64,000 nt of DNA from Thermoanaerobaculia bacterium. Lineage in GTDB: Bacteria; Acidobacteriota; Thermoanaerobaculia; UBA5066; DATFVB01. The translations under genes and the position numbers were made by a program. The stretch covers positions 471 through 64,470 of the forward strand of contig DASTIQ010000315.1 of the NCBI GenBank assembly GCA_035717485.1, in the 5' to 3' direction. Below, one piece after another: positions 5,806 through 56,528 of the stretch (position 1 is the stretch's first letter; every line of letters begins with the position of its first letter). The notes beneath the pieces are model-generated. The model searched no databases, had not been told where the DNA came from, and saw nothing but the letters and a program-made list of their open reading frames with translations.

Positions 5806-5996
5806 CCCGTCGCGTTCGCGACGCTCGCGGAGCTCGGATCGCGAACGCGGCTCGCCGAACGAGCGACTCAACCGCGGCGACGGGCACCCCCTCGCAGTGC
5901 TTCCGCTCCCGCGGCGCGAGTCGTCTCGGCGAGTGATCGCGCGAGACTTTGTCGCGCCGCGAGGGCTCGACGCAGCGGCCTAGTCGAGTCTAATGA

Positions 5997-8969: not shown

Positions 8970-9140
8970 AAGCGTCTCTCCCCACGGCCGCGCTTCGAGG
9001 GCAACCACGAGGCGCGCCGAGACGGGCGGAAAGACGCGTTCGAGGCGGCCTCCGGCTGGCGAGGCGTACCGGGGCGTACGTTGAGCCCGCCGGCGGCCGC
9101 CACGGGCGCGTATAGCAGCCCGTATCGACGCGCCCGATCT

Positions 9141-9701
9141 TCAACGTGGCCAGAGCCATCCGAACGTCGCCCCCGCGATCACCGCATAGATGATCCCGTC
9201 GATCGTCTCCTTCACCGCGGAACTGAAGGCCCGGCGGTACCAGATCGTGGTCTGCCAGAGCGCGAGGACGTATCCGATGAAGGAGACCGCCGCCGTGAAC
9301 CGGAAGGCGCGCCGGAACGTCGAATCGGGGGTGATCGCCCGGCTCGTGACGTAGGCGGCGAAGAGCTCGACGACGACGAGATACACGAACCAGAGGGCGA
9401 GGTTCCTTCCCATGGACATCACTCCGTTGGGATAGACGGTCGCGACCATCACCGGCCCGCGGTTCATCTTTTCCTTGAATTCCGCGGATTTCATCTCGGC
9501 GCCGCTCGAGCAGCGGGGAAGCATGTAGTCGCCGGGAGGAATGGCGAAGGGCCGGAGCGCGTCCATCACCTCCGCTTCGCGCGGGATCTTCGGGTAGTCG
9601 CTCTTGTGCCAGAACGGGCCCATGTGAAGGATCGAGCTCGCGAGAAACACGAACACGGCCGACAGCAGGATCGGGAGCCAGAGCGCCGACAAGGGTGTCA
9701 T
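9141..9701 (-). CDS. Hypothetical integral membrane protein
   Basis: Start at the second Met, preceded by AAAGGAGAG Shine-Dalgarno. Several TM helices. Downstream of and co-directional with fpg. Confidence 0.5.
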   Translation of the reverse strand: MTPLSALWLPILLSAVFVFLASSILHMGPFWHKSDYPKIPREAEVMDALRPFAIPPGDYMLPRCSSGAEMKSAEFKEKMNRGPVMVATVYPNGVMSMGRNLALWFVYLVVVELFAAYVTSRAITPDSTFRRAFRFTAAVSFIGYVLALWQTTIWYRRAFSSAVKETIDGIIYAVIAGATFGWLWPR

Positions 9702-9776
9702 GACCTCTCCTTTCTCCGGGGGTTTCGGACGATTATCCCGGAGGGTCCGGAGAGGCGTCAAACGTCGGCGGGCCGG

Positions 9777-10673
9777 TCAGCGCCGTTTTCGCTCTTCCCA
9801 TTCGTCCAGGGTCTTCGGCCAGTCGTGCATCAGCCGCGAGAGCGCCCGGTCGGCGAGGAGCCTGCCGCCCGTCTGGCAGGGAGCGCAGTAGTTCGCCTCG
9901 TTCTCGCCGTGGACGATCCGCTGCACGGGGGCGCCGCAATCGGGACATGGCTCGCCGAAGCGTCCGTGAACGGCCATCCCCTTCCGGAACGCGGTCACCT
10001 TCTCGGGAAAGCCGTCCCCGGTTTCGGCCCGGATCCGCTCGATCCAGCGCGCGAGCGTCGTTCGCGTCGCGTCGTAGAGCCGTGTCCTCTCTTGCGCGGT
10101 GAGGCGGCCGGTCAGCTTGACGGGGGAGAGTTTCGCGGCGTGGAGGATCTCGTCCGAATACGCGTTCCCGATCCCGGAAAAGAGCCGCGGGTCGGTCAGA
10201 GCGCGCTTCAGCGTGTGGTTTTCCGACCTCAGGACGGCGTCGAATTCCGCCGCCGTCGCCTCGAGGGGCTCGATGCCGCCGCGGGCGAACGACGCGAGCG
10301 CATCCTCTCCCCGGACGAGGTGGATCGAAGCGCGCTTCTTCGGGCTCGCTTCGGTGAGGAACAGGGAGCCGCGATCGAAATCGAAGGAGGCGAGGTTCAC
10401 CTTCCCCGCGATCCTCGCGCCCTTCGGCTTCCAGTGGAAGCGGCCGGCGATCATGAGATGGACGACGAGGAAGAGCTCGCCGTCGAGAGCGAACACCACC
10501 CGCTTCCCGATCCGGCGGACTCCGCGGACGGCCTTTCCCTCGGCCTCCGAGATCGGCGGGTCGTACGAGCGGAGCACGAACGGGCTCGCGATCCGCACCC
10601 GCTCGAGGGTGCGGCCGCCGATCGCCCGCTCGAGGCACTCGACGTACACCGCGACGTCGGGAAGCTCCGGCAC
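9777..10673 (-). CDS. mutM: Formamidopyrimidine-DNA glycosylase (Fpg/MutM)
   Basis: GTG start gives the canonical MPELPDV N-terminus. Zinc finger CPDCGAPV...CAPCQ at the C-terminus. 298 aa. Confidence 0.85.
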   Translation of the reverse strand: MPELPDVAVYVECLERAIGGRTLERVRIASPFVLRSYDPPISEAEGKAVRGVRRIGKRVVFALDGELFLVVHLMIAGRFHWKPKGARIAGKVNLASFDFDRGSLFLTEASPKKRASIHLVRGEDALASFARGGIEPLEATAAEFDAVLRSENHTLKRALTDPRLFSGIGNAYSDEILHAAKLSPVKLTGRLTAQERTRLYDATRTTLARWIERIRAETGDGFPEKVTAFRKGMAVHGRFGEPCPDCGAPVQRIVHGENEANYCAPCQTGGRLLADRALSRLMHDWPKTLDEWEERKRR

Positions 10674-15498: not shown

Positions 15499-16161
15499 AT
15501 GCCGTCACCCGTCCGCGAAGCGATCGATCTGCTTTCCAAGAGCGGCGAGGCCGCCTTCGCGATCGACGCGTCCGACCGGCTCGTCTACTGGAACAAGGGA
15601 TGCGAGGAGATCCTCGGCTTCGAGGCCCAGAAGGTCCTGGGAAAGCTCTGCTTCGAGGTCATGGGGGGACGGGACGAGCACGGAAATGTGTATTGTTTCA
15701 AGAACTGCCCCGTCGCCCATCAGGCGCGGCACAACGAGGACGATCCGGTCCAGCCCTTCGTGCTTTCCGTCAAGGACAAGAAGGGCGAGCAGCGGAAGCT
15801 GACCGTTTCGATGTTCGCGGTCCCGGCCGTTCGCCCCTCCCTGTCGGCCGTCGTGCACGTCATCCGGGAAACCGGCGCTCCGGCGTCTCCTCTCGAGAAG
15901 ACGCTCGCGAAGCAGGCCGCCGCGGCGCCCCCGACGCGCTGGCCCCTTCTCACGACCGAGGGACAGCCGGTCGAGCTCACGACGCGCGAAAAGGAGATCC
16001 TCCGCTGCCTGGCCGAGGGCTTCTCGACGTCGGCGATCGCGGAGAAGCTCTTCATCGCCCCGGTGACGGTGCGGAACCACGTCCAGAGCATCCTGCAGAA
16101 GCTCGACGTGCACACGAAGCTGGCCGCGGTCGTGTTCGCCTACCGCCATCAGTTGATTTAG
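15499..16161 (+). CDS. PAS-domain / LuxR-family HTH transcriptional regulator
   Basis: N-terminal PAS-like sensor region. C-terminal LuxR HTH (LTTREKEILRCLAEGFSTSAIAEKLFIAPVTVRNHVQSILQKL). Confidence 0.7.
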   Translation: MPSPVREAIDLLSKSGEAAFAIDASDRLVYWNKGCEEILGFEAQKVLGKLCFEVMGGRDEHGNVYCFKNCPVAHQARHNEDDPVQPFVLSVKDKKGEQRKLTVSMFAVPAVRPSLSAVVHVIRETGAPASPLEKTLAKQAAAAPPTRWPLLTTEGQPVELTTREKEILRCLAEGFSTSAIAEKLFIAPVTVRNHVQSILQKLDVHTKLAAVVFAYRHQLI

Positions 16162-16304
16162 CGGCGCGGCGATACGCCGCGTGATACGGGCCCGTGCGGC
16201 CCGGCGCCGAGTCGTCCGAGCCCGTCTTCCACGACGTCTCGCCGCGCCTCGAACTCGACCCAATCGGCAGGGGGAGCCGGGGTCCGCCGGTCTCCCCGAC
16301 GGCT

Positions 16305-16739
16305 TCAGCGAGCGCGGCGGAGTGCTTTCCTGGGAGCTCTACCGGTCCGTCGCCGCTTCGCCTTCGCGCCGAGCTCGCGGGAGACGAGATCGAGCAGGTC
16401 CGAGACGGTCAGGATGCCGACGAGCTTCCCGTCCGAGACGACCGGGAGCGCGCCGATCTTCCTCCGCCTCATCAGGTAGGCGGCGTCCTCGACCGGCGTC
16501 GCCGGCGCGACGACCGCGACGCCGCGGCTCATCACCTGGTCGATCGTCCGATCGATGCGGAGGTTGCCGACGAGGAGCCCCGCGATGTCGCGGTCCGAGA
16601 CGATCCCGACCACCCGCTCCCCCCGCACCACGACGAGGTGGCGCAGCCGCCGCGCGCGCATCCGTTTCAGGGCCTGCTCCGCGGATCCGTCCTCCCCGAT
16701 CGTCTCGACCTTCCGGTGCATCAGCTGTTCGACTCGCAC
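16305..16739 (-). CDS. CBS domain pair protein
   Basis: 144 aa with two CBS motifs. Confidence 0.6.
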   Translation of the reverse strand: MRVEQLMHRKVETIGEDGSAEQALKRMRARRLRHLVVVRGERVVGIVSDRDIAGLLVGNLRIDRTIDQVMSRGVAVVAPATPVEDAAYLMRRRKIGALPVVSDGKLVGILTVSDLLDLVSRELGAKAKRRRTGRAPRKALRRAR

Positions 16740-16859
16740 GGGCTCCCTCCCCCCTCCACTCTACCCTCCGCGGCCGCTCTTCGAGCGCCGAAATGATGCA
16801 TTTGGAGCAAGACCGGCTCCCGGCCGGGGGACATGATCGGATCGGCAAGGAGGGCGTGC

Positions 16860-17342
16860 ATGCGGGTTCGCGATCTGATGACCACCCACGTCTGGTCCTG
16901 TTCCGAGAACGCGACCGTCGCTTCGGCCGCCAATACGATGCTCGACCACAACTGCGGCTTCGTTCCCGTCGTGGGCAAGGACGGCGACGTCCTCGGCGTC
17001 GTGACCGACCGGGATCTATGCATGGCCCTCGTGCGGAACGACCGGCGCGCCGCCGAGATCCCCCTCGCCGAGGTCTGCTCGGGCCGGGTCGTCTCCTGCC
17101 GGCCCGACCAGGAGATCCACGACGTCCTCCAGATCATGGAGGGCGCGCGGGTCCACCGGCTGCCCGTCGTGGAGGACGGCCGGCTCAAAGGGATCATTTC
17201 GATGACGGACGTGCTCCGGCACGCCTCTCCCGTCCGGAGCGCCGACGGGGACTGTCTCACCTGCGCCGAGGCGGTGGGCGCGCTGAAGATGATCACCGCC
17301 GTCCGCCGGCCCCGGAAGAGCTGGGTCGCCGCGGCGGAATGA
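16860..17342 (+). CDS. CBS domain pair protein
   Basis: Start at MRVRDLMTTHVW, preceded by AAGGAGG. Two CBS motifs. Divergent from the other CBS gene. Confidence 0.6.
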   Translation: MRVRDLMTTHVWSCSENATVASAANTMLDHNCGFVPVVGKDGDVLGVVTDRDLCMALVRNDRRAAEIPLAEVCSGRVVSCRPDQEIHDVLQIMEGARVHRLPVVEDGRLKGIISMTDVLRHASPVRSADGDCLTCAEAVGALKMITAVRRPRKSWVAAAE

Positions 17343-18166: not shown

Positions 18167-20329
18167 ATGAAGAGCTTCAGGATCGTTCTGATCGCGGTGT
18201 GCGCGGCGGCGGGCGTCGCGCTCGGGGCCGAAACGAAAGCCAAGGCGAAACCGCCCGCCGATGCCGATTGTCTCGGCTGCCACTCCGACGCGACGTTGAA
18301 ATCCGCGAAGGGCCGCTCCCTCTTCGTCGCCGCCGCGAAGCTCGCCCGGTCCGTTCACGGAGCCGCGGGTCTTTCCTGCGTGGACTGCCACGCCGGATTC
18401 GACCCCGGAGAGATTCCCCACAAGGCGAAGATCACCCCGGTCGCGTGCGTCGGATGCCACGACGACGTCGCCGCCAAGCACCCGTTCCACCGCGATCTCG
18501 CGGAAGCGAAGAAGGGCGGCGCCGCGCCCGCGGTCGACTGCCAGTCGTGCCACGGCGGACACGGCGTCGTTCCCGTCTCGTCGCGCGCGTTCCTGCTCAA
18601 GAGCGACCCGGCCGCGGGCTGCGGATCGTGCCACGACGACGTCGTCGCCGAATTCCGCTTCTCGGCGCACGGGCGCGCGCTCGCGCGCTCCGTCAAGGGA
18701 GCGCCGGACTGCCTCACGTGCCATCGCCAGGACATGATCGGCTCGATCGGCGTGCCGTATGCGACCCGCAAGATCGCGCAGGAGAAGATGTGCCTCTCCT
18801 GTCATCTCAAGAACCCCGCGATCCGCGCGATGATGCCGAGCGCCGGGTTCATCGAATCCTTCGAGACGAGCGTCCACGGACGCGCGCTCGCGCGCGGAAA
18901 CGGTGCGGCGCCGACCTGCATCGACTGTCACGGAACCCACGGCATGAGCAACCCCCTCTCGCCGGGCTCGAACGTCGGGAAGCTCGAGATTCCGCACCTC
19001 TGCGCGAAGTGCCACAAGACGGAAGCCGCCCAGTACGCCACGAGCGTTCACGGAACCGCGCTCGCTCGCGGGATGAAGGACGCCCCCGTCTGCACCGACT
19101 GCCACGGCGAGCACGCCGTGCTCCCGCGCCGTGATCCGAACTCCCCGATCGCCGCGGCGAACGTCTCGGCGCGCGTCTGCACGCCCTGCCACGGCTCGCT
19201 GCGGCTCGCGCAGAAATTCAACCTGCCCACCGACCGCTCCCGGAGCTACGCGGACAGCTTCCACGGCATGGATTCCCGCGGGGGGGTCGCCTCGGTCGCC
19301 AACTGCGCGAGCTGCCACGGCGCGCACGACATCCTTCCGTCTTCCGATCCGCGCTCGCGCGTCGCCAAGGCGAACCTCGCCTCGACCTGCGGCCAGAACG
19401 GGTGTCACCCGAAGGCGAACGACCGGTTCGCGCTCGGCCGCGTCCACGTCACCGGCACGAGGGACAAGGACCCGCTCCTCTTCGTGATCGCGACGATCTA
19501 CATCGTGCTCATCGCCGGCGTCATCGGCGGGATGCTCGCGCACAACGCGCTCGACTTCCTCCGGAAGCTCCGGCACCGATTCCGGATCCGGATGGGCAAG
19601 GACGTCGAAGCTCCCGCGGGGAACGGCGTCTACCTGCGAATGACGCTCTTCGAGCGGCTCCAGCACGGGGGCGTCGCCCTCCCGTTCATCCTGCTCGTCA
19701 TCACCGGCTTCATGCTCCACTACCCCGACGCCGCCTGGGTGCGGCTCATCCGGCGGATGAACCCGAGGGCGTTCGAGCTCCGGAGCGTCCTCCACCGCGC
19801 GGCGGGCGTCGTGATGACGGTGACGAGCCTCGTCCACGTCGCCTACATCGTCCTCTCCGCGCGCGGCCGCCAGCTCGTCGCGGATCTCTGGCTGCGCCCG
19901 AAGGACCTCACGGACGCCTGGAAGACCCTCAAGTACAACCTCGGTCTCTCGAAAGAGAAGCCGATGTACGGAAGGTTCTCGTACGCCGAAAAGGCGGAGT
20001 ACTGGGCGCTGGTCTGGGGCACGATCGTCATGACGGTCACCGGCGTCGTCATGTGGTTCGACAACACCTTCATCGGACTCCTGACGAAGCTCGGCTACGA
20101 CGTCTCCCGCACGATCCACTTCTACGAGGCGTGGCTCGCGTTCCTCGCGATCGTCGTGTGGCACCTGTATTTCGTGATCTTCAACCCGGACGAGTACCCG
20201 ATGAATCTCGCCTGGCTCACCGGAATGCTCTCCGAGAAGGAAATGGAAGAGGAACACCCGCTCGAGCTCGAGCGGCTTCGCCGTTCCGGACCCGAGCCCG
20301 GCGCCCCCGCACCGGCGCCCCCGGCATGA
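18167..20329 (+). CDS. Multihaem cytochrome c (12 CxxCH plus one CX4CH) fused to a C-terminal dihaem cytochrome b membrane domain (CbcL-like quinol oxidoreductase)
   Basis: Signal peptide. 12 CxxCH motifs plus CGQNGCH. The C-terminal 300 aa have 5 TM helices with conserved His pairs, like HydC/FdnI-type cytochrome b. Confidence 0.8.
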   Translation: MKSFRIVLIAVCAAAGVALGAETKAKAKPPADADCLGCHSDATLKSAKGRSLFVAAAKLARSVHGAAGLSCVDCHAGFDPGEIPHKAKITPVACVGCHDDVAAKHPFHRDLAEAKKGGAAPAVDCQSCHGGHGVVPVSSRAFLLKSDPAAGCGSCHDDVVAEFRFSAHGRALARSVKGAPDCLTCHRQDMIGSIGVPYATRKIAQEKMCLSCHLKNPAIRAMMPSAGFIESFETSVHGRALARGNGAAPTCIDCHGTHGMSNPLSPGSNVGKLEIPHLCAKCHKTEAAQYATSVHGTALARGMKDAPVCTDCHGEHAVLPRRDPNSPIAAANVSARVCTPCHGSLRLAQKFNLPTDRSRSYADSFHGMDSRGGVASVANCASCHGAHDILPSSDPRSRVAKANLASTCGQNGCHPKANDRFALGRVHVTGTRDKDPLLFVIATIYIVLIAGVIGGMLAHNALDFLRKLRHRFRIRMGKDVEAPAGNGVYLRMTLFERLQHGGVALPFILLVITGFMLHYPDAAWVRLIRRMNPRAFELRSVLHRAAGVVMTVTSLVHVAYIVLSARGRQLVADLWLRPKDLTDAWKTLKYNLGLSKEKPMYGRFSYAEKAEYWALVWGTIVMTVTGVVMWFDNTFIGLLTKLGYDVSRTIHFYEAWLAFLAIVVWHLYFVIFNPDEYPMNLAWLTGMLSEKEMEEEHPLELERLRRSGPEPGAPAPAPPA

Positions 20330-23106
20330 TCCGTCCGGCGAGAACGCTCGCGCTCCTGTTCGCGGTCCTGGCGCTCGCCCCCGCGGCCGGGGCCGCGAAC
20401 CCGGCCCCCTCGAAGGACGACTGCCTCGCGTGCCACGAACCGGGCGTCCGCGTCGGGCGGCGGAAAGCCGGCGAGGCCCCGCCGTTCAACGCGGCGGCCC
20501 TGAAATCCTCTCCCCACGCGGACCTCGACTGCGTTTCCTGCCATGCCGACATCAAGGAAGTCCCTCATCCGGACAAGCTCGCGCGCGTGGACTGCGGCTC
20601 CTGCCACTCGGACGAGGGAAAGCAGTATGCGGCGAGCGTGCACGGCCGGAAGAGCGCCGCCGGCGATCTCTACGCCCCGGGCTGCAAGAGCTGCCACGGC
20701 ACGCACGACGTTCTCCGTCCCGGAACGCCCGGTTCGCCGACCTCGACGATGCAGATCCCGCGCCTCTGCGGCGGCTGCCACCGCGAAGGGTCCGCCGTCA
20801 GCCTCACCCGGAAGATCCCGCAGACGAACATCCTCGGCAACTACATGGACAGCATCCACGGCGAAGGTCTCTTCAAGCGCGGGCTGATCGTCGCCGCCGT
20901 CTGCACGAGCTGTCACACGGCGCACTTCGTGCTCCCCCACAACGACCCCCGCTCCTCGATCGCCAAGGAGAACATCGCGAAGACCTGCACGAAGTGCCAC
21001 GCGCAGATCGAGATCGTCCACCGCAAGGTGATCCGGGGCGAGCTCTGGGAGAAGCAGCCGCACCTGATTCCCGCCTGCGTCGACTGCCACTCTCCGCACA
21101 AGATCCGGAAGGTCTTCTACTCGCAGGGAATGGCGGACCAGGACTGCCTGCGCTGCCACGGCGACCCGAACCTGAAGGGAACCCGGGGCGGCGAGACCGT
21201 CTCCATGTTCACGGACGCGAAGGAGCTCGCGCATTCCCGCCACGCGAAGATCGCCTGCGGGCAGTGCCACACCGGCGGCGACCCCTCGAAGACCCGCCCC
21301 TGCCTCACGATCGCGGCGCGCGTCGACTGCTCGATCTGCCACGCCGCCGTCGTCGACCAGTACAAGGAAAGCCGACACGGTCAGCTCTTCGCGCAGGGCA
21401 GCCCCGACGCGCCGTCGTGCCAGGACTGCCACAGTCCGCACGGGACGTTGTCCAAGACCGACCTGAATTCCCCGACGTTCTCGCGGAACGTCCCGGCGCT
21501 GTGCGCGCGCTGCCATCGCGCGGGCGAGAAGGCGGCCGTCCGATACCGGGGCGCCCAGAAGAACATCGTCGAGAACTATCTCGAGAGCATCCACGGCAAG
21601 GGCCTCATGGAGTCGGGGCTCACGGTCACCGCCAACTGCGCCGACTGCCACAGCGCGCACCGCGAGCTGCCGTCGGCCGACCCCCGGTCGACCGTGAATC
21701 GCGCCAACGTCGCCCTGACCTGCGCAAAGTGCCACCGCGGGATCTACGAGCTCTTCAACGCGAGCGTCCATTCGACGGCCGTGACCCGGACGAACAAGAC
21801 GCTTCCGGTCTGCAGCGACTGCCACTCGGCTCACAGCATCCAGCGGACGGACCTCTCGAACTTCCGCCTCCACATCATGGACCAGTGCGGCCGATGCCAC
21901 GAGAAGATCGCGGCGACGTACTTCGACACGTTCCACGGAAAGGTCTCGAAGCTCGGGTATCTCGCGACCGCCAAGTGCTACGACTGCCACGGGTCGCACG
22001 ACATCCTTCCCGTGACCGATCCCCGCTCGCGCCTCTCCCGCGCCAACATCGTCAAGACGTGCGGGAAGTGCCACAGCGGTTCGCACCGCCAGTTCGCCGG
22101 ATATCTCACGCACGCGACGCACCACGACCCGAAGCGCTACCCCTTCCTCTTCTACACGTTCTGGGGGATGACGTTCCTCCTCGTCGGAACGCTCACGTTC
22201 GCCGGCACCCACACCGCGCTCTGGCTCCGCCGCTCGCTCGCCGACGGAAAGGCCCCCGCCGCGGCCGAGGCCCAGGCCGACCGCGTCTACGTCCGCCGCT
22301 TCACGACGTTCCAGCGGAACCTGCACCTGATGGTGATCGGCAGTTTCCTCGGGCTCGCGGCGACCGGCATGACGCTGAAGTTCTCCTACGCGCCGTGGGC
22401 GCGCGTCCTCGCGCGGCTCTTCGGCGGATTCGTCGCGGCCGGCCTGATCCACCGCTTCTGCGCGGTCGTGACCTTCACCTATTTCGGGCTCCACCTCTGG
22501 GACCTCGTCCGCCAGAAGCGGAAGAGCGGGAAGAGCTGGATCCGGCTCGTCTTCGGTCCGGACAGCATGATGCTCAACCGCCGCGACTGGCGCGAGTTCG
22601 TCGGATCGATCAAGTGGTTCCTGAAGAAGGGGCCGCGGCCCCGCTACGGGCGCTGGACCTACTGGGAGAAGTTCGACTACTTCGCGGTGTTCTGGGGCGT
22701 GGCCGTGATCGGCATGACCGGCCTGATCCTCTGGTTCCCGACCGTCTTCACGCGAGTGCTGCCCGGGTGGATGGTGAACGTGGCGACGACGATCCACAGC
22801 GACGAGGCGCTGCTCGCCGTGTGCTTCATCTTCAGCATCCATTTCTTCAACACCCACTTCCGTCCGGAGAAGTTCCCGATCGACACCGTGATCTTCACGA
22901 CGGGAGTTCCGCTCGAGGAGCTCAAGCACGACCGGCCGCTCGAGTACCGGCAGCTTCGCGAGAGCGGAGAGCTCGAGCGCCTGAAGATGCCGGCGCCGAT
23001 CCCGCTGGCGAACCGGATGTGGCGCCGTTTCGGCTTCACCGCGCTCGCGATCGGGCTCGTGCTGATCGGGCTGATCCTGTATTCGATGCTCTTCCTCTAT
23101 CGGTGA
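20326..23106 (+). CDS. Second multihaem cytochrome c (19 CxxCH) fused to a dihaem cytochrome b membrane domain (CbcL-like paralogue)
   Basis: ATGA overlap with the previous gene. Signal peptide MIRPARTLALLFAVLALAPAAGA. 19 CxxCH motifs. C-terminal multi-TM domain with His ligands. The upstream part of ORF 19402 is an artefact. Confidence 0.8.
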   Translation: MIRPARTLALLFAVLALAPAAGAANPAPSKDDCLACHEPGVRVGRRKAGEAPPFNAAALKSSPHADLDCVSCHADIKEVPHPDKLARVDCGSCHSDEGKQYAASVHGRKSAAGDLYAPGCKSCHGTHDVLRPGTPGSPTSTMQIPRLCGGCHREGSAVSLTRKIPQTNILGNYMDSIHGEGLFKRGLIVAAVCTSCHTAHFVLPHNDPRSSIAKENIAKTCTKCHAQIEIVHRKVIRGELWEKQPHLIPACVDCHSPHKIRKVFYSQGMADQDCLRCHGDPNLKGTRGGETVSMFTDAKELAHSRHAKIACGQCHTGGDPSKTRPCLTIAARVDCSICHAAVVDQYKESRHGQLFAQGSPDAPSCQDCHSPHGTLSKTDLNSPTFSRNVPALCARCHRAGEKAAVRYRGAQKNIVENYLESIHGKGLMESGLTVTANCADCHSAHRELPSADPRSTVNRANVALTCAKCHRGIYELFNASVHSTAVTRTNKTLPVCSDCHSAHSIQRTDLSNFRLHIMDQCGRCHEKIAATYFDTFHGKVSKLGYLATAKCYDCHGSHDILPVTDPRSRLSRANIVKTCGKCHSGSHRQFAGYLTHATHHDPKRYPFLFYTFWGMTFLLVGTLTFAGTHTALWLRRSLADGKAPAAAEAQADRVYVRRFTTFQRNLHLMVIGSFLGLAATGMTLKFSYAPWARVLARLFGGFVAAGLIHRFCAVVTFTYFGLHLWDLVRQKRKSGKSWIRLVFGPDSMMLNRRDWREFVGSIKWFLKKGPRPRYGRWTYWEKFDYFAVFWGVAVIGMTGLILWFPTVFTRVLPGWMVNVATTIHSDEALLAVCFIFSIHFFNTHFRPEKFPIDTVIFTTGVPLEELKHDRPLEYRQLRESGELERLKMPAPIPLANRMWRRFGFTALAIGLVLIGLILYSMLFLYR

Positions 23107-23179
23107 CCGGAGCGAGGAATAAAATCGACCATCGCCCGCCGAGGACGCGGGCCGAACGACAGAAAGGGGACCGGCGGGA

Positions 23180-24622
23180 ATGAAGGATTTCGCGAAGAAC
23201 TGGCTGCGCCCGATCGTCTATCTGGGGCAGAACCCCATGAGCATCCTCGGCGCGGTCCTCACGACGAGTTCGGCGCTGACTCTCGCCGGCTTCTGGGTGT
23301 TCGAGATCCTGCAGACACGACCGCTGCCCCCCTACGCGGGGATCGTCCTCTACCTCGTCCTTCCCGGCATCTTCGTGATCGGCCTCGTCCTGATGCCGGT
23401 CGGCGCGCTCTGGCAGCGCCGCAGCCTCAAGCGCGCCGGGAAGCTTCCCCACGAGTATCCGCGGATCGACCTGCGGCACCCCGTGCTCCGGCGCGCGGCC
23501 GTGCTCGTCGCGATCGCCACCGGGTTGAACGTGATGATTCTCGGAACCGCTTCCTACCTCGGCGTGGAGTACATGGACTCGGTGCAGTTCTGCGGACAGA
23601 GCTGCCACACGGTGATGGCCCCGGAATACACCGCCTACAAGGATTCCCCCCACTCCCGCGTCGCCTGCGTCGAGTGCCACATCGGAGCGGGAGCGCCGTG
23701 GTTCGTGCGCTCCAAGATCTCCGGCGTGCGGCAGGTCTTCGCGGTGGCGTTGAAGACGTACTCGACGCCGATCCCGTCTCCGGTCCAGCACTTGCGGCCG
23801 GCGCGCGAGACGTGCGAGCGCTGCCACTGGCCGCAGCGGTTCGTCGGCGACAAGCTGCTCGTCCGTCCGAAGTTCGCCGACGACGCCGCGAACACGAAGT
23901 CGTACGACGTCCTCGTGATGAAGATCGGGGGCCACACCTGGCAGGGGGCCGTCGGAATCCACGGCCGGCACCTCGCCCAGGCGTCGCGCGTGTCGTATGT
24001 CTCGACGGACGCGCACCGGCAGGTGATCCCCGTCGTCCGCTACACCGACGATTCCGGCAAGACGATCGAGTACGTCTCGACGGACGTCAAGACGACTCCC
24101 GAGCAGCTGCAGCGCGGCGAGAAGCGGACGATGGACTGCATGGACTGCCACAACCGGCCCTCCCACACGTTTCAGATACCCGAGAAGGCCGTCGACCAGG
24201 CGATGGCGGCCGGTCGGATCAGTCCGGAGCTCCCGTTCGTCAAGAAAGAGACCGTCGCGCTCCTGAAGACCCCGTATGCGGACCGGGATGCGGCGTCGGC
24301 GGCGATCGGCGAAAAGATGGCGGAGTTCTATCGGACGTCCTATCCGGACGTCTTCCGGACGCATCGCGCGCAGATCGAGGCGGCCGCCGACGAAGCGCGG
24401 CAGATCTATCTGCGGAACGTCTTCCCCGCGATGAAGATCGGATGGGGCACCTACCCGAACAATCTCGGGCACGAGGACTTCCTCGGCTGCTTCCGCTGCC
24501 ACGACGGCAGCCACCAGTCGAAGGACGGGAAGGTCATCACCCAGGACTGCGACGCGTGCCACGCCCTGCTGGCGCAGGACGAATCGAACCCGAAGATCCT
24601 CGCCGAGCTCGGGATGAAATGA
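23180..24622 (+). CDS. Membrane-anchored multihaem cytochrome c, NapC/NirT-family, ImcH-like (6 CxxCH, 3 N-terminal TM helices)
   Basis: Three N-terminal hydrophobic helices, then a periplasmic domain with CGQSCH, CVECH, CERCH, CMDCH, CFRCH and CDACH. Confidence 0.75.
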   Translation: MKDFAKNWLRPIVYLGQNPMSILGAVLTTSSALTLAGFWVFEILQTRPLPPYAGIVLYLVLPGIFVIGLVLMPVGALWQRRSLKRAGKLPHEYPRIDLRHPVLRRAAVLVAIATGLNVMILGTASYLGVEYMDSVQFCGQSCHTVMAPEYTAYKDSPHSRVACVECHIGAGAPWFVRSKISGVRQVFAVALKTYSTPIPSPVQHLRPARETCERCHWPQRFVGDKLLVRPKFADDAANTKSYDVLVMKIGGHTWQGAVGIHGRHLAQASRVSYVSTDAHRQVIPVVRYTDDSGKTIEYVSTDVKTTPEQLQRGEKRTMDCMDCHNRPSHTFQIPEKAVDQAMAAGRISPELPFVKKETVALLKTPYADRDAASAAIGEKMAEFYRTSYPDVFRTHRAQIEAAADEARQIYLRNVFPAMKIGWGTYPNNLGHEDFLGCFRCHDGSHQSKDGKVITQDCDACHALLAQDESNPKILAELGMK

Positions 24623-24656: not shown

Positions 24657-27197
24657 GTGAGCGCGACGGCCGGGGAGCGGCCGAGCGGCCTCTCCAGCGC
24701 GCGCGCCCGGGAGCTCCTCGCCGAACACGGGCCCAACCGGTACGTCCCGGCGGGCCGCACCGCCTCGTTCGCCGAATTCCTCCGCACGCTCGCCGACCCG
24801 ATGGCGATCATGCTGCTCGCCGCGGCGATCCTCTCCTTCGCGGCGGGACAGCGGCGGGACGGAATCGTGCTCCTGGTGGCCCTCTTCCCGGTGCTCGCGG
24901 TCGACGTCGTCCTCGAGGCGAGGTCGCGGCAGGCGCTGAAGAAGCTCGCGCAGGCGGTTTCCCCGCGTGCCACCGTCGTCCGCGACGGCGTGCCGGCCGA
25001 GATCCCGACCGAGGAGATCGTGCCCGGCGACATCCTCGTGATCCGCGAGGGAGACGTTCTGCACGCCGACGGGACCGTCGCGTGGTCCGCGCACCTGGCG
25101 ATCGACGAGTCCATGCTGACCGGCGAGTCGGAGCCGAAGGACAAGATCGCCGGCACGCCGTTCTACGCCGGCTCGCGCGTGCTCACCGGTCAGGGCGGGG
25201 GCGAAGTGGCCTCGACCGGCCTCCGGACGCAGTACGGCCGGATCGCCTCGCTCGTCGCGGAAGCGCCCGCGGGGCAGACGCCGATCCAGGAGAAGACCGC
25301 GAAGGTCGTCTCCATCCTCGGGAAAGTCGCGCTCGTCGTCGCGGCCGCGGTCTTCGGCCTCGCGTGGCTCCGGGAACGGTCGCTGGCGCGCGCCTTCGTG
25401 TCGGCGATCAGCGTCGCGATGTCGGCGATGCCCGAGGAGTTCCCGCTCGTGTTCACGCTGTTCCTCTCGCTCGGGGCCTGGCGCCTCTCGAAGCATCGCG
25501 TCCTCGTCCGGCGGCTCGCGAGCGTCGAGACGCTGGGGTCGACGACGGTGATCTGCACGGACAAGACCGGGACGCTGACGCTCGGGCAGTTCGTCCTCGA
25601 AGCGGTGCTCCCGTTCGGCGACTTCACGGAGGCCGATCTCCTGGAATCCGCCGTCCTCGCCTGCGAGATCGACCCCTCCGACCCGCTGGATCAGACGATC
25701 CTCGAATCCGCGCGCGCCGCCGGACTCGACCCGGGGCGGCTCCATTCGGGCGGGCGCCTCGTCCGCGACCATTCGTGGGACGCCCTCGGCAAGCACATGT
25801 CGCACGTGTGGAGAACGGAAGACGCGGCGGCGGGCACCCTCGTCGTCGCGGCGAAAGGCGCCCTCGAGGGGATCCTCGAGCACTGCGCGCTGACGCCCGG
25901 GCGCCGGGCCGAAGCCGAAGCGCGTCACGCGGAGCTCGCGGCGGGAGGGCTGCGCCTCCTCGCGGTCGCCGGAAAAACGCAGCGGGAGGGGTCCGAGGAC
26001 CGCGCGAGCGACGAATCGAACCTCGCGCTCGTCGGCTTCCTCGGCTTCCGGGATCCCCTCCGGCCGGAGATCGCGGCCGCGGTCGCGGACTGCCGCACCG
26101 CCGGAATCGCGATCAAGCTCGTGACCGGCGACCATCCGGTCACGGCGCAGGCGATCGCCGAGAGCGCCGGCATCGTCACGGGACGCGAGCCGATCGCGAC
26201 CGGCGACGAGCTCGCGGCGCTCTCTCCCCCCGATTTCGCGCGGCGCGTCGCGGAATCGCCGATCCTCGCCCGCATCCTCCCCGAACAGAAGTACGCGATC
26301 GTCGACGCGCTCCGCGCCGGCGGAGAAGTCGTCGCGATGGCCGGCGACGGCATCAACGACGCTCCGGCTCTCCGCCGCGCGTCGATCGGGATCAGCATGG
26401 GCGCCCGGGCCACGGAGGTGGCGCGCGCCGCGGCCGATCTCGTCCTTCTCGACGACAATTTCGGCTCGATCGTCCAGACGATCCGGGAGGGCCGGCGGAT
26501 CTACGACAACCTCGAGAAGGCGTTCCGGTACCTGCTCGCCTTTCACGTGCCGATCGTCCTTCTCGCGGTGGTCGTTCCCCTCCTGGGGTTCCCGCTCCTC
26601 CTCCTTCCGGTCCACCTCGTCTGGCTCGAGCTCGTCGTGCACCCCGTTTCCGCCCTGCTGTTCGAAGGAGAGCCGGCGGATCCCGACGTCATGCGGCGCC
26701 CGCCCCGGCCGCCCGGATCGTCTCTGCTCGGGAAGCGTTCGGTCCGGAGCTCCGTCGCGACCGGCGCCCTGCTCGCGGCCGCGGTGCTCGCGATCTACGC
26801 CGCGGCGGTGTCGAAGGGAGAAGACGCGGCACGGGGCTTCGCGCTCGCGGCGCTCATACCGGGGACGCTCCTGATCGCCTGGGCGGAGCGCGCCGGAGAT
26901 CGTCCCTGGCGGCGCGTTCCGGCGCCGAACACCGGCCGGTTCTGGGGGATCATGGCGCCGATCGCGGTCTCGCTCCCCCTTCTCGTCGCCTGGCCGACCG
27001 CCTCGCAGATTCTCCACGCCACGTTTCCGTCCTCCGGGCAGTGGGCGATCGCGCTCGCGGCGGCAACCGCGGCGGTCGCCTGGCGCGCGTTCGGCACCGG
27101 GGAAGAAAGGCGAAAACTCCCCGTCTCGCCGGACTTCTCCGCCGATCGAAATGCCGCCGGCGCCGCCGGACGGCGGCCCGGTGCGCCCCCGCTCTGA
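24657..27197 (+). CDS. P-type cation-transporting ATPase (P2/Ca-Mg type)
   Basis: DKTGTLT phosphorylation motif, TGES, GDGINDAPAL hinge, 8-10 TM helices. 846 aa. GTG start. Confidence 0.85.
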   Translation: MSATAGERPSGLSSARARELLAEHGPNRYVPAGRTASFAEFLRTLADPMAIMLLAAAILSFAAGQRRDGIVLLVALFPVLAVDVVLEARSRQALKKLAQAVSPRATVVRDGVPAEIPTEEIVPGDILVIREGDVLHADGTVAWSAHLAIDESMLTGESEPKDKIAGTPFYAGSRVLTGQGGGEVASTGLRTQYGRIASLVAEAPAGQTPIQEKTAKVVSILGKVALVVAAAVFGLAWLRERSLARAFVSAISVAMSAMPEEFPLVFTLFLSLGAWRLSKHRVLVRRLASVETLGSTTVICTDKTGTLTLGQFVLEAVLPFGDFTEADLLESAVLACEIDPSDPLDQTILESARAAGLDPGRLHSGGRLVRDHSWDALGKHMSHVWRTEDAAAGTLVVAAKGALEGILEHCALTPGRRAEAEARHAELAAGGLRLLAVAGKTQREGSEDRASDESNLALVGFLGFRDPLRPEIAAAVADCRTAGIAIKLVTGDHPVTAQAIAESAGIVTGREPIATGDELAALSPPDFARRVAESPILARILPEQKYAIVDALRAGGEVVAMAGDGINDAPALRRASIGISMGARATEVARAAADLVLLDDNFGSIVQTIREGRRIYDNLEKAFRYLLAFHVPIVLLAVVVPLLGFPLLLLPVHLVWLELVVHPVSALLFEGEPADPDVMRRPPRPPGSSLLGKRSVRSSVATGALLAAAVLAIYAAAVSKGEDAARGFALAALIPGTLLIAWAERAGDRPWRRVPAPNTGRFWGIMAPIAVSLPLLVAWPTASQILHATFPSSGQWAIALAAATAAVAWRAFGTGEERRKLPVSPDFSADRNAAGAAGRRPGAPPL

Positions 27198-27209
27198 GGA
27201 GCGACGGCG

Positions 27210-27333
27210 AGACGCGAGCCCGGATGGAATGCGGGCGGCCCGCAGCGACCGCAGGCGTACTGAAGAAGTACGTCGGAGGAAGCGGCGGGCCGCACGCGCC
27301 CGTCCGGCTCGATGGATGGTCCGCGCCCGCTCC
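27210..27333. repeat. 124-bp direct repeat, copy 1 (intergenic, 3' of ATPase)
   Basis: Identical to copy 2 except for 2 mismatches. Internal hairpins such as cgtac-tgaagaa-gtacg and gcccg-gatggaat-gcgggc. Confidence 0.7.
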
Positions 27334-27385
27334 ACGACGATTCGAGCCGCTTCCCGGATGACCGGAATGCGGCTCAGGCGCGGCC

Positions 27386-27509
27386 AGACGCGAGCCCGGA
27401 TGGGATGCGGGCGGCCCGCAGCGACCACAGGCGTACTGAAGAAGTACGTCGGAGGAAGCGGCGGGCCGCACGCGCCCGTCCGGCTCGATGGATGGTCCGC
27501 GCCCGCTCC
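27386..27509. repeat. 124-bp direct repeat, copy 2 (period 176 bp)
   Basis: 122/124 identity to copy 1. Separated by a 52-bp spacer. Confidence 0.7.
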
Positions 27510-27511
27510 GG

Positions 27512-27703
27512 TTACGAGGGCGTCACCCCCGGCTCATGCGCCTGCAATGACGGCTCCGGACCGCGCTTCTCGCGCCGGCTCGGCCCCTCGAATTCTTCGG
27601 TCTGGGCGATGAACGCCTCTTTTTCTTCGGGTGTCATCCGGTCGTTCGGCGTGACGCGCGTTCGCGCGGGGCGCCGGTTTCCGGTCGTGGCAATCGGTTT
27701 CAT
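27512..27703 (-). CDS. Hypothetical small protein (63 aa)
   Basis: Strong GAAGGAGG Shine-Dalgarno 6 nt upstream of ATG. Lower-GC codon usage. Overlaps antisense to the longer but unsupported ORF 27312..27728. Confidence 0.35.
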   Translation of the reverse strand: MKPIATTGNRRPARTRVTPNDRMTPEEKEAFIAQTEEFEGPSRREKRGPEPSLQAHEPGVTPS

Positions 27704-27795
27704 GGCAAGCCTCCTTCTGTCGGCCTGACGCGTTCACGATCGCACGGGCGCGCCTCGGAATCCATCCTCCAAACGCTTCAATCTATGATCGGAAG

Positions 27796-28692
27796 ATGAC
27801 GACGAAACCCGCCTGGCCGGAGCTCCCCCTCGACGAGTGGCGCGAAACGAACGAAACGCTCCATCGCTGGACGCAGATCGTCGGCAAGGTCGCCCTCGCG
27901 CTGACGCCGCGGGTGAACCACTGGTGGAACGTTTCTTTCGCGGTGACGGCGCGCGGCCTCGCGACCTCCCTCCTTCCGTTCGGGACCGGGGCGCTCGACA
28001 TGGAATTCGACTTCGTCGAGCACGTCCTGCGCCTGCGCACGACGGATGGGCGGACGGCGACGATCGCCCTCGCGCCGAAGAGCGTCGCGCGCATGCGCTC
28101 CGAGATCTTCGGCGAGCTCGAGGCGCTCGGCGTTCCCGCGCGGATCTGGAACGTGCCCGTCGAGATCGAGGACCCGATCCCGTTCGATCGGGACGAGACG
28201 CACCGCTCGTACGAACGCGAGCCGGTCGAACGGTTCTGGCGCATCCTCGCCGGGACTCACGCCGTGTTCACCGAGTTCCGAGCGGGGTTCCTGGGGAAGT
28301 GCAGCCCGGTCCAGTTCTTCTGGGGCACCTTCGATCTCGCCGTGACCCGCTTCTCCGGACGCGTCGCGCCGCCGCGGCCGGACGCCGACGCGATCACCCG
28401 GGAGGCGTACTCCCACGAGGTTTCGAGCGTCGGCTTCTGGCCGGGGGATTCCCGCCTGCCGCTCCCGGCCTTCTACAGCTACGCGGCTCCGGAGCCGCCG
28501 GGGTTCCGCGACTCCCGCGTCCGGCCGGACCCCGCCTACTACCATCCGCAGCTCGGCGGGTTCTACCTGCACTACGACGAAGTCCGCCGAAGCGGCGAAC
28601 CGGAGCGTCGGCTCCTCGATTTCTGCCGCGCGACGTACGAAGCGGCCGCCGACGCGGGAGCGTGGGACCGGGCGAACCTCGAAAGAAGATGA
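27796..28692 (+). CDS. DUF5996 family protein
   Basis: 298 aa. The N-terminal WPELPLDEWRETNETLHRWTQIVGKVALALTPRVNHWWN matches the conserved DUF5996 start. Confidence 0.55.
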   Translation: MTTKPAWPELPLDEWRETNETLHRWTQIVGKVALALTPRVNHWWNVSFAVTARGLATSLLPFGTGALDMEFDFVEHVLRLRTTDGRTATIALAPKSVARMRSEIFGELEALGVPARIWNVPVEIEDPIPFDRDETHRSYEREPVERFWRILAGTHAVFTEFRAGFLGKCSPVQFFWGTFDLAVTRFSGRVAPPRPDADAITREAYSHEVSSVGFWPGDSRLPLPAFYSYAAPEPPGFRDSRVRPDPAYYHPQLGGFYLHYDEVRRSGEPERRLLDFCRATYEAAADAGAWDRANLERR

Positions 28693-32208: not shown

Positions 32209-32497
32209 GCGTGAATGATACGGGAGGCCACATGGGATTCACCGTAAGGTCCCGGATTCGTCACGAGTGAGAACCGCGTGCCGCCTGGAACGAGGACCCG
32301 TTCCGTCGAACGACCTCCACCCGATCGTGCCCGGGGGCTATCGCATCGCGGAGAGCTTTCGCCGAAGTAACCGGGGCGAAAGCTCCGCGATGCGGGAGCG
32401 GCGGCGAAGGGGGTGGCGGCGGCGCGGTCGAGTCGCTCGTTCGACGAGCCGTGCCGCCGTTACACGCTACCGGTCCCCGAGCCCGCTCCCGCGACGG

Positions 32498-34447
32498 TCA
32501 GTTGTGCCAGCGGATGTAGACGCCGTACCGATTCGCGTCGTAGTTCGCGAGCGATCCGGCGAGCGTCGCCTTTTCCTCGTACTTGTCCCGGTTCCACTCC
32601 CCGATGAGCGAAAAATTCTTCGCCACGTCGACGGCGGCGCGAACGGCCGCGCGATCGATCGTGAAGGGGAAAGAACCCTCGTTCTCGAAGCGGCCGACGG
32701 CGCCATCGATCGACACCGGCGCGAAGATCAGGGTCAGCCCGCCGTCGAACGACCGGCCGTTCTCGCGGTGGAACGACGTGTCGATCGAGAAGTCCTCGGG
32801 ATGCCGGAAGAGGATCCGGCTGTCGGATTCGTACTTCTCGGCGGAAACTCGCAGGCGCAGGAACTTCGCCGGAGAGCCCTCCGCCTCGCCGCCGTACTGG
32901 CGGATCCTGGCGTCGTATCCGATCCCCGTGCGGTCGTTCGAGGCATCGATCTGCTCGCCGGTCAGGCTCAGGCGGAAGACGTCCTTGAGCGCCCAGGCGG
33001 CGCGGAGACGGTATCGGTCACGGTCCAGGAAGTCGGTGCGGACGACGGGATCGTCGGCACGGTCGCGACGCCAGTCGGCGCCGAGAGTCAGGCCGCTCGC
33101 GGTGAATTTCGCCCCGAGATCGAATCCGTTGATCCGCCGGTCGAAGGAACCGTCCTGCGCGCCGGGAACGACGATCTCTTCCGGCCCTTCGACGACGGTC
33201 ACGCGCTGCTTGTTCTGGGAGCCGCCGGCGAAGACCGAGAGCCCTCCGAACGCCCGCGCATCGACCCGCGCGTCGAAGATCTCGTCCGTGCGCTCGACCG
33301 AGGTCTTCGCCTCGATCGTCTGGAGGAGATCGCGCGGATCGAGACCCGCAAACGTCACCGTCTGGAGATACAGATCCGAAATCAGCGCGAATCCGTCGAG
33401 CTCCTGGTGATTCTTCGACCAACCCGCGGAGAGGTCGATCCCGTCGGCGAGATTCGCCTCGACGCGGCCGCTCCCCCGCCATGCCGTGTTCTCGGCGCGC
33501 GAGGAGATCGTGTCGGTCAGGCCGGCGAAGATCCGGCTGATCCCGAAGGAGACGAGGTTCCCCGCGAAGTCCTCGCGCTCCGTGACGTCGGCTTCCGCGG
33601 CCGCGCGCACGTACGAGCCGATGAGCTTCACGCGACTGCCCAGGCGCGCCGCGACGGCGGCGTTCGTGATCGGCGTGTTCGCGTCGTTCTTGGTCGTGCG
33701 ATGGAAGTTGTCGAGCGACACGGGAACGCCCAGCACCGTTCCGGAGCCGTTGCCGGCCCCCGCTCCCGGCACGAGGTCCTGGGTCTCGACCTCGTGGAGC
33801 TTTCGCCAGCCCTGGGTGACCTGGCCGGTGACGGGACCCGCGTCGAATGCGGCGCCCCCGTAGATCTCCTGATCGTCCTCGTCGAGGTTCTGGGTGAGCC
33901 GGAACTCGTCGCCGCCGGCGGAGTACGTCGTCCGGCCGGGCCCCTCGTAACGGTTGTAGACGTAGCCGACGATCGGCGTGATCCAGTAGCCGGGAAGGAA
34001 GCGCAGCTCGACTCCCAGGATGTTCCGGGTGCGGTCGTACGTGTGCTCGCCGGGAGTGATCCCTTCGGAGATCAGCGGGTTGGCGAACGCCGGAAGCGCG
34101 GAGAACATCTCCGTCCGCCGGTAGTTGAGCCGCAGGTCGTACTTGCCGGCGAGGCCCGCCTGCAGGCGGAACGATCCCGCCGGTCCGGCGCCCAGGTCGT
34201 TCGCGTCGAGGCGGAACTGGTCGAAGAGTCCCGCGCCCGCGGGACCGCCGGCGGACAGGCTCAGGGCGCGGAGGAGGAAACCCTCGCGCTCGTTGATCTG
34301 GCTCCGGTACATGTCTTCGTTCCCGCTGACGTCGAGGAACCGGTATCCGAGCTCGACGTCCACCGGGACGGCGGGGGGATCGGCCGCCAGGACGGCGCTC
34401 GAAGCGCCGGCGGCGATCAGGGCGATGACGAGGCGGAGCTTCTTCAT
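32498..34447 (-). CDS. Outer-membrane beta-barrel porin, MtrB/PioB/MtoB-like
   Basis: Signal peptide MKKLRLVIALIAAGASSAVLAA. 649 aa with alternating beta-strand pattern, rich in Gly/Asp/Arg/aromatic residues. Immediately downstream of the decahaem gene with an 11-nt gap. Confidence 0.6.
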   Translation of the reverse strand: MKKLRLVIALIAAGASSAVLAADPPAVPVDVELGYRFLDVSGNEDMYRSQINEREGFLLRALSLSAGGPAGAGLFDQFRLDANDLGAGPAGSFRLQAGLAGKYDLRLNYRRTEMFSALPAFANPLISEGITPGEHTYDRTRNILGVELRFLPGYWITPIVGYVYNRYEGPGRTTYSAGGDEFRLTQNLDEDDQEIYGGAAFDAGPVTGQVTQGWRKLHEVETQDLVPGAGAGNGSGTVLGVPVSLDNFHRTTKNDANTPITNAAVAARLGSRVKLIGSYVRAAAEADVTEREDFAGNLVSFGISRIFAGLTDTISSRAENTAWRGSGRVEANLADGIDLSAGWSKNHQELDGFALISDLYLQTVTFAGLDPRDLLQTIEAKTSVERTDEIFDARVDARAFGGLSVFAGGSQNKQRVTVVEGPEEIVVPGAQDGSFDRRINGFDLGAKFTASGLTLGADWRRDRADDPVVRTDFLDRDRYRLRAAWALKDVFRLSLTGEQIDASNDRTGIGYDARIRQYGGEAEGSPAKFLRLRVSAEKYESDSRILFRHPEDFSIDTSFHRENGRSFDGGLTLIFAPVSIDGAVGRFENEGSFPFTIDRAAVRAAVDVAKNFSLIGEWNRDKYEEKATLAGSLANYDANRYGVYIRWHN

Positions 34448-55642: not shown

Positions 55643-55729
55643 TGGTGGGGGCAGAGAGATTCGAACTCTCAAGGGATTGCTCCCAACAGGTCCTAAGCCT
55701 GTCGCGTATGCCAGTTCCGCCATGCCCCC
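55643..55729 (-). tRNA. tRNA-Leu (anticodon TAG), type II with long variable arm, CCA encoded
   Basis: Manual fold: acceptor GGGGGCA/TGCCCCC. Anticodon stem ACAGG/CCTGT with loop CTTAGGA. Long variable arm. T-arm GAGAG-TTCGAAT-CTCTC. 87 nt. Confidence 0.85.
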
Positions 55730-56452: not shown

Positions 56453-56528
56453 TGGTGAGGCGTCAGGGAATCGAACCCTGAACCTAGAGATTAAGAGTCT
56501 CTTGCTCTGCCAATTGAGCTAACGCCTC
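56453..56528 (-). tRNA. tRNA-Lys (anticodon CTT), CCA encoded
   Basis: Manual fold: acceptor GAGGCGT/ACGCCTC. D-arm GCTC-AATTGGCA-GAGC. Anticodon stem AGAGA/TCTCT with loop CTCTTAA. T-arm CAGGG-TTCGATT-CCCTG. 76 nt. Confidence 0.85.

Follow-up and report, generated by a model that had tools for sequence, protein, structure and literature searches.

The described systems closest to the repeats analysed here are REP and REPIN sequences, MITE-like repeats such as ERIC, Correia/NEMIS and RUP, and the attC sites of integrons. Movement of REP and REPIN sequences is commonly ascribed to RAYT (Y1/HUH) transposases, and copying of this kind leaves no target-site duplication; Liang, Rudd and Deutscher are said to have found in 2015 that REPs very near stop codons stall terminating ribosomes. 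Depending on orientation, the folded RNA of ERIC/Correia/RUP-type repeats can alter how stable neighbouring mRNA is, and attC sites measure 57-141 nt and carry the core sites RYYYAAC and GTTRRRY. REPINs combine conserved ends with a spacer that undergoes compensatory change, can form a hairpin in ssDNA or mRNA and occasionally occur in clusters (PMC3116915), and REPs favour sites downstream of ORFs (PMC3733652).

The locus compared here with these systems is a pair of repeats beside an ATPase gene in the window, by which we mean the whole 64,000-nt stretch of Thermoanaerobaculia DNA analysed. We lean towards reading the repeats as neighbouring copies of a dispersed, non-coding element of ~130 nt, REPIN- or MITE-like in kind, that doubles as a gene-end hairpin. 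As with REPIN/RAYT systems such as that of Pseudomonas fluorescens SBW25 (PMC3116915), the element is extragenic and roughly 100-130 nt long, has two conserved inverted ends and a middle kept paired through compensatory changes, can form a long hairpin in ssDNA or mRNA, is occasionally found as neighbouring copies and persists vertically over long periods; a clover-like alternative fold, with a small palindrome in each arm, is possible in both. It differs in carrying neither a GTAG tag nor an obvious short REP palindrome at each end, in having a conserved tip where REPINs have a variable spacer, in that no RAYT was seen in the window or the syntenic contigs, and in a strict orientation relative to stop codons, which is not among the REPIN features described (PMC3116915). 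With the REP/BIME sequences of Escherichia coli and the GTAG/CGTC superfamilies (PMC3733652) it shares a position downstream of ORFs, between convergent or co-directional genes, the presence of inverted pairs able to form larger hairpins, and proposed roles in mRNA stabilisation and termination; REP units, however, are 20-40 bp long with an unpaired tag, whereas the element is a single ~130-nt hairpin that has no tag and shares no sequence with them. ERIC, Correia/NEMIS, RUP and other MITE-like repeats resemble it in size (about 100-150 nt), terminal inverted repeats and intergenic, transcribed locations, but have defined target duplications (TA for Correia) and, in some cases, a known parent IS, while for the element no target duplication, parent element or sequence similarity was found. 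Membership in REP/REPIN-RAYT or MITE is thus not established, and the best reading is a new family of REP/REPIN/MITE-like kind. A literature search returned no description of such repeats in Thermoanaerobaculia, and we know of none.

A repeat search of the 64-kb window returned 27205-27333 and 27381-27509 as a direct repeat of 129 nt with a period of 176, identical at 126/129 positions (98%). Base-by-base comparison places the three mismatches at 27209, 27228 and 27251, two of them inside the 124-nt blocks that a preliminary description, made from the sequence alone, had reported as differing by two substitutions. One 32-mer of the unit is present twice in the window but absent from all of 100 dinucleotide shuffles. 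Together the repeats occupy the 314-nt gap between the ATPase stop codon (27195-27197) and that of a small minus-strand ORF (27512-27514), which bears out the convergent intergenic location first described. The preliminary judgement that the locus is not a CRISPR array is likewise correct. Copy 1 begins 3 nt past the ATPase stop codon, and its outermost 5' bases are GCGACGGCGAGAC where the family consensus has GGCGCGGCGAGAC; copy 2, whose base stem is complete (GGCGCGGCCA / TGGTCCGCGCC), stops 2 nt short of the 63-codon ORF's stop codon. The ATPase starts with GTG, and its protein is 100% identical to an NCBI protein named from a Thermoanaerobaculia MAG; the 63-codon ORF is also called in the relatives L001, L008 and L010. 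Coordinates of these and all other family features are collected in Table 1.

The unit is not a protein-coding repeat. Because its period, 176, does not divide by 3, the reading frame shifts from one copy to the other, as the preliminary description had argued, and ORFs 27151-27612 and 27312-27728 do read the copies differently; neither ORF has a Pfam match. A six-frame translation of the unit, which would also have picked up spurious ORFs annotated across other copies, had no match at E <= 0.01 in 5.8 billion protein clusters.

Table 1. Positions of the repeat copies, their relatives and neighbouring genes. Contigs other than the window are given by their labels; the last column names the gene whose stop codon adjoins the 3' end of the folding strand on the opposite strand.
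Feature	Contig	Position	Strand	Evidence or remark	Opposite-strand gene
P-type cation ATPase gene	window	24657-27197	+	Pfam	
Copy 1	window	27201-27333	+	direct repeat and cmsearch, 114.4 bits, E 3.8e-19; nhmmer and covariance model match 27199-27332 +	
Copy 1 tip stem-loop	window	27254-27274	+	GGCGTACT-GAAGA-AGTACGTC	
Spacer between copies	window	27334-27376	+	~47 nt, unrepeated	
Copy 2	window	27377-27509	+	cmsearch, 126.4 bits, E 2.2e-21; nhmmer and covariance model match 27375-27508 +	63-codon ORF
Copy 2 tip stem-loop	window	27430-27450	+	same as copy 1 tip	
63-codon ORF	window	27512-27703	-	ORF call, strong ribosome-binding site GAAGGAGG	
Third window member	window	9009-9139	+	cmsearch, 97.6 bits, E 4.9e-16; nhmmer, covariance model	ORF 9141-9761 (-); 3' stem ends 5 nt before stop
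Fourth window member	window	16158-16250	-	42.9 bits, E 7.5e-6; nhmmer, covariance model	GerE-type regulator gene
Family copy	L008	4128-4261	-	nhmmer, covariance model	GerE-type regulator gene
Family copy	L008	19250-19383	+	nhmmer, covariance model	gene 19386-20657
Short family copy	L008	13948-13987	-	20 bits, E 0.11	488-codon ORF
Family copy	L015	4108-4241	-	nhmmer, covariance model	GerE-type regulator gene
Family copy	L030	15845-15977	+	nhmmer, covariance model	gene 15965-16888, stop within stem
Family copy	L005	924-1052	-	nhmmer, covariance model	ORF 244-921
Partial family copy	L009	1-70		cut by contig end	
Phage hairpins	L020	750 and 5423			ORFs with stops 874-876 and 5546-5548
Interval with 485-490-codon ORF	L008	12439-14075		compared with window 27095-27515	
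Interval with 485-490-codon ORF	L012	12557-14029		compared with window 27095-27515	
Interval with 485-490-codon ORF	L013	2808-4277		compared with window 27095-27515	
Interval with 485-490-codon ORF	L030	12508-13965		compared with window 27095-27515	

The predicted fold of each unit is a single long, imperfect hairpin of about 100-125 nt. Copy 1 reaches -77.4 kcal/mol on the + strand (z -4.3) against -69.5 on the - strand, copy 2 reaches -85.4 kcal/mol (z -6.4), and the segment 27376-27505 (+), at -98.4 kcal/mol, is the most stable of 8516 sliding 130-nt windows on both strands (mean -54 kcal/mol, sd 8.4). The folding of both strands proposed in the preliminary description yields one hairpin per unit, more stable on the + strand. 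Of the two smaller hairpins that it had picked out, cgtac/gtacg is real and forms the tip of the fold, while gcccg...gcgggc exists only as a local alternative: the minimum-energy fold pairs its bases with the 3' arm.

The family was assembled from several sources. An inverted-repeat scan brought up a long hairpin at 16152-16259 that shares blocks with the repeat unit and with L005, a metagenome contig hairpin located via a tip 20-mer, and syntenic contigs from relatives were obtained through ATPase relatives of 72-91% identity. Six full-length members, aligned with a mean column identity of 74%, formed the basis of a covariance model. On the best-folding strand the consensus reads (GA)GGCGCGGCGAGAC, variable stems, CGAGGCGTAC-loop-GTACGTYGAG, variable stems and GTATCGCCGCGCC. 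Searches with nhmmer and cmsearch recovered 4 copies in the window and 7 more in the related contigs and L005, all intergenic; apart from the short copy at L008 13948-13987, forward-strand scores were 43-128 bits and reverse-strand scores 26-36 bits. The same models found no copy in L012, L014 or L031. Where present, the family has a density of about one copy per 10-20 kb, it is absent from some relatives, and about a dozen copies were seen in total in about 250 kb.

The family is thus dispersed, and one of its copies has been retained at the same locus across relatives. The third window member lies between convergent genes, 40 nt past the stop of a PLP-enzyme gene (8010-8969 +), and folds at -94.5 kcal/mol against -88.2 on the opposite strand. 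The fourth, a shorter version that has lost the tip, is matched by full-length orthologues at the GerE-CBS locus of L008 and L015; in L009 the contig end truncates the copy. The L008 and L015 copies are orthologous by synteny, have widely different middle stems and fold at -94.7 and -101.7 kcal/mol respectively (z -7.9 and -10.0). Terminal inverted repeats (GGCGCGGCGA...TCGCCGCGCC) stand at both ends of most members. The preliminary suggestion of a REP/BIME/ERIC-like repeat or MITE accordingly gains further copies in the window and in relatives and a hairpin with compensatory changes; it had named the lack of any other copy and of structural conservation as grounds for demoting the repeat to a local duplication, and on both counts the outcome favoured the repeat reading.

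Beyond the related contigs, representative genomes and JGI metagenomes were scanned with the tip 20-mer (GCGTACTGAAGAAGTACGTC) rather than with the family consensus, and L005 was the sole true long-hairpin relative in these scans. Hits in L002 and L006 were chance coding matches, that in L004 was an ordinary low-GC terminator, and L003 and L007 (Nitrospira) contain the 33-nt tip alone.

Within the pair, identity starts abruptly at 27205/27381 and ends abruptly at 27333/27509, with unrelated flanking sequences, and the spacer, which holds a 13-bp hairpin of its own (27344-27375, GAGCCGCTTCCCGG...CCGGAATGCGGCTC), was sought before copy 1 and after copy 2 and is absent from both. Tandem duplication of a 176-nt segment is disfavoured because it would have duplicated the spacer too, and the unrepeated spacer, unrelated flanks and sharp edges point instead to two insertions. 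Judged from the sequence, this suggests either two insertions of one subtype or the insertion of one copy beside a resident one. We find it scarcely credible that the pair arose solely by local tandem duplication of a commonplace terminator hairpin belonging to no family. In favour of such a reading, the 64-kb window holds just two copies of the exact subtype and no third, and a scan of 185,579 representative genomes with the tip 20-mer gave nothing beyond chance-level matches. Against it stand the members found in other genomes and at loci unlinked to the pair, the unduplicated spacer, the lack of similarity between the flanks and the missing U-tract.

The hairpin fold is conserved with covariation, and it is strand-specific. 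RNAalifold returned a single hairpin of 39 pairs from the family alignment. Across 8 sequences, standard pairs fill 89.5% of cells, against 33-42% when the partners are slid by 1-3 columns, and 15 pairs show changes on both sides, with 0/500 shuffles reaching the observed values; the alignment was fitted to the model, so these figures favour the structure somewhat. Base stem and tip stem (GAGGCGTAC-loop-GTACGTYGAG) are conserved, while the middle stems drift in sequence and keep pairing. A G.T(U) wobble in the tip stem is invariant in every member that retains the tip (pair 60-83 is G.U in 7/7), and its neighbour alternates between G-C and G.U.

With RNA parameters the same strand is the more stable by 3-20 kcal/mol in 11/11 elements, and with DNA parameters in 3/3. 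Paired columns contain 26 G.U cells against 11 A.C cells, and internal mismatches on the better-folding strand are mostly G.A. Downstream of genes in general no such bias was seen, the strands being split 23 vs 19.

These properties bear on the idea, raised in the preliminary description as a duplicated small RNA, that the repeats are two copies of an independently transcribed + strand small RNA gene, the hairpin being its body or its terminator. A strand-specific fold with conserved G.U and G.A features, as in functional RNAs, and great stability (-211 kcal/mol on the + strand of the 323-nt region, z -8.9, vs -186 on the - strand) would suit such a gene. We nevertheless regard it as improbable, and the earlier suggestion found no positive support. 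The Rfam/Infernal search that had been proposed placed no family on the repeats, either at the gathering threshold or at E up to 10 (best regional match E 0.92, far below threshold), a simple scan of 26800-28000 gave no promoter-like site, copy 1 starts only 3 nt past the ATPase stop, several members fill their intergenic gap and leave no room for a promoter, and the loop sequence varies among members. An Rfam search of L003, L005 and L020 likewise found nothing. The window's only Rfam matches are tRNA-Leu and tRNA-Lys on the minus strand (55643-55729 and 56453-56528).

Individual motif readings fared no better. The tip CU-GAAGA-AG of the two window copies and L005 has the same nine bases as lambda nutL boxB; a boxB reading was rejected because the loops of other members are unrelated (CGGGGC, CGAGAGC, CGUGAGCA, UGUA), and the loop is for that reason not a conserved family feature. 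SECIS and tRNA-anticodon-mimic readings were dropped on sequence grounds.

The position of the element relative to genes is narrowly defined. At nine to ten independent loci the distance from the 3' end of the well-folding strand to a stop codon on the opposite strand is about -8 to +7 nt (Table 1), so that the two lie within about 8 nt of each other; for the fourth window member, the 3' stem ends 1 nt from the stop of the GerE-type regulator (16159-16161, + strand). Convergent gene pairs flank four of the loci, and there the folding strand carries the sense of the more distant gene; at four with tandem pairs (L005, L008 19250, L030 and L020) it is antisense to both genes. Copy 1, which adjoins the ATPase stop on the same strand, is the lone exception to the orientation rule. 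We know of no transposition mechanism that explains so strict an orientation relative to a neighbouring stop codon, and no such orientation is known to us for REPINs. Two further long hairpins in the window, at 32388-32494 (+) and 5808-5935 (-), are unmatched by the family model; they share a 23-nt block (GAGTCGCTCGTTCGRCGAGCC), adjoin the opposite-strand stops of the genes at 32498-34447 (-) and 4693-5805 (+), and fold better on the strand antisense to the adjoining gene. At the orthologous LCM locus, L008 has a true family member in place of the window's unmatched hairpin.

A hairpin directly after a stop codon, of similar size, built as an imperfect inverted repeat and folding on the complement of the strand that codes for the gene before it is also what characterises integron attC sites, in which folded bottom-strand hairpins follow the stop codons of cassettes. 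That the repeats are integron-like attC sites is nonetheless very improbable, because the core sites are absent from the element ends, no integrase lies nearby, and the flanking genes are not cassettes but syntenic housekeeping genes conserved across relatives.

The interval between ATPase and small ORF is hypervariable: sequence homologous to L008, L010 and L012 breaks off at 27094-27115 and picks up again at 27508-27516. In L008, L012, L013 and L030 a 485-490-codon ORF with no Pfam family lies between the ATPase and the small ORF/DUF5996 genes (Table 1); the window lacks this ORF, and the C-terminal tail of its ATPase differs over ~20 residues. The corresponding gap of L010 measures 467 nt and contains a diverged copy plus other hairpins. 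Several short hairpins of a recurring type (for example, GATCATCCGCCTTCGCC...GGCGGATC) at L010 3090-3338 are unrelated to the repeat family. L013 terminates within a fragment resembling the 3' arm of the repeat unit, and the Logan contig L001, 99.8% identical to the window, ends 32 nt into copy 2. Contigs L001, L009 (at its start) and L013 all end inside hairpin repeats, and the end of L011 and the other end of L009 lie 39-91 nt beyond the ATPase stop. Breaks at these hairpins are the usual behaviour of contigs at multi-copy repeats, and they suggest that the repeats routinely break short-read assemblies of this lineage. Repeats of this kind can be miscalled as small ORFs, they break metagenome assemblies, and they mark sites of gene-order change.

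Signs of a mobilising machinery were sought in several ways. No transposase domain was found in the 28 window ORFs scanned or in the Pfam annotations of L008-L015 and L030, and neither the window nor the related contigs contain a parent insertion sequence with the same ends. GTAG/CTAC is absent from element ends in the alignments, GTAG occurring sporadically and only inside L005 and copy B of L020, and no direct repeat flanks any copy, as judged by eye and from the alignments. A sensitive blastn of the repeat region against plasmids and phages gave no match. Empty sites could be compared at two places, L012 lacking the copy at the GerE locus and the window lacking the L008 19250 copy, and gave no clean filled/empty junctions because the flanks are too diverged.

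The missing transposase, GTAG/CGTC tag and target-site duplication, the conserved tip and the strict orientation to stop codons count against a mobile, REPIN-like reading, and so does the persistence of a copy at an orthologous locus with compensatory change, which a host function would explain equally well or better. A serious alternative, to which we attach a smaller but appreciable probability, is an RNA structure that acts in cis for the host and is not itself mobile: gene-end hairpins maintained by selection as 3'-end protectors, unconventional terminators, insulators separating convergent or adjacent genes, or RNase processing sites, and made alike by occasional recombination or gene conversion. 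Such a structure would account for the strong covariation, for the element being kept, with compensatory change, at the GerE-CBS locus of the window, L008, L009 and L015, for placement strictly at gene ends, for the four loci at which the folding strand is the sense of the convergent upstream gene and hence its 3' UTR, and for the two copies in a phage structural operon that sit exactly between ORFs. It does not, however, dispense with a copying process, which near-identical copies with sharp edges and unrelated flanks require; relatives L012, L014 and L031 do without the element at the same genes; and at the tandem loci (L005, L008 19250, L030 and L020) the mRNA would be the less stable complement, with A.C and pyrimidine mismatches. 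The terminator scan placed nothing on the repeats, and no member has a T-run after the hairpin on either strand, so that the repeat, having no U-tract, is not a canonical intrinsic terminator.

Under the preferred reading of a dispersed REPIN/MITE-like element, we infer both the copying step and a role of the hairpin as RNA. An enzyme encoded elsewhere would copy the element, now or until recently, into further sites in the form of a folded single strand, and copies 1 and 2, being of one subtype, may have inserted separately and recently. After insertion the hairpins would serve as structures at gene ends, where they could shield the 3' ends of the transcripts that converge from the ATPase and the small ORF, could block read-through between the two genes, and possibly hinder ribosomes terminating a few bases away. 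Doubt that the folding strand becomes RNA at all arises from the four tandem loci, where it is antisense to all local genes. Stop-codon position, fixed orientation and strand-specific fold together offer a testable handle on a long-standing question for REP-like elements in general, namely whether they last as selfish DNA or through the host's use of the hairpin.

The tip and base of the hairpin were also searched for in viral contigs. The base-stem pattern had 0 matches and the tip pattern 12, of which 11 lie in coding (EAYxxKYVE-type) or non-hairpin contexts. The twelfth, L020, is a tailed-phage contig with terminase, portal and major head genes, and contains two ~125-nt hairpins with the family tip, each exactly between ORFs of the phage structural operon; an extended tip pattern found L020 alone. 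The second of these hairpins bears a compensating change (GTAC-to-GTAG / GTAC-to-CTAC), and both have the family's wobble, G.A flanks, stop-codon position and orientation. Kinship is unproven, because they score just 19-22 bits with the family model; given the non-complementary positions in the pattern, we estimate from the sequence that a chance tip match is unlikely. Contigs L028 and L029, retrieved with the base pattern of L020, do not fold and are chance matches. L020 also carries arrays of an 8-nt-period motif, CTACTYNN, at 4213-4263, 8142-8200 and 10093-10117, just upstream of gene ends, one of which adjoins a partial hairpin 3' arm after the major head gene. In L003 (Nitrospira MAG VGXC01000003.1) a solitary 33-nt tip module, GAGGCGTACTGAAGAAGTACGTCGAGG, at 1078-1110 immediately follows an in-frame TGA and precedes a 512-codon ORF whose frame it shares.

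Should the relationship of the phage copies prove genuine, the tip module would indicate a binding partner that is conserved. That the module GAGGCGUAS-loop-SUACGUYGAG, with its invariant G.U wobble and adjoining G.A mismatches, identifies strand-specific elements of a new class, recognised by a conserved protein, is a doubtful proposition at present; such a class could be a mobile element that targets gene ends as ssDNA in a fixed orientation, or an antisense-strand RNA device that shields gene 3' ends.

The window contains other repetitive sequence. A multi-haem cytochrome gene cluster at 18167-24622, conserved beside the ATPase in all syntenic relatives, has CxxCH-coding segments that form direct repeat families of 96 nt and 33 nt. 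Three 300-nt direct repeats (45947-47395), 78-79% identical, lie within a minus-strand ORF of 1175 codons (45493-49020); the + strand frame across them is coding-like by GC3 yet interrupted by stops, and the 1175-codon ORF probably encodes a repetitive surface protein.
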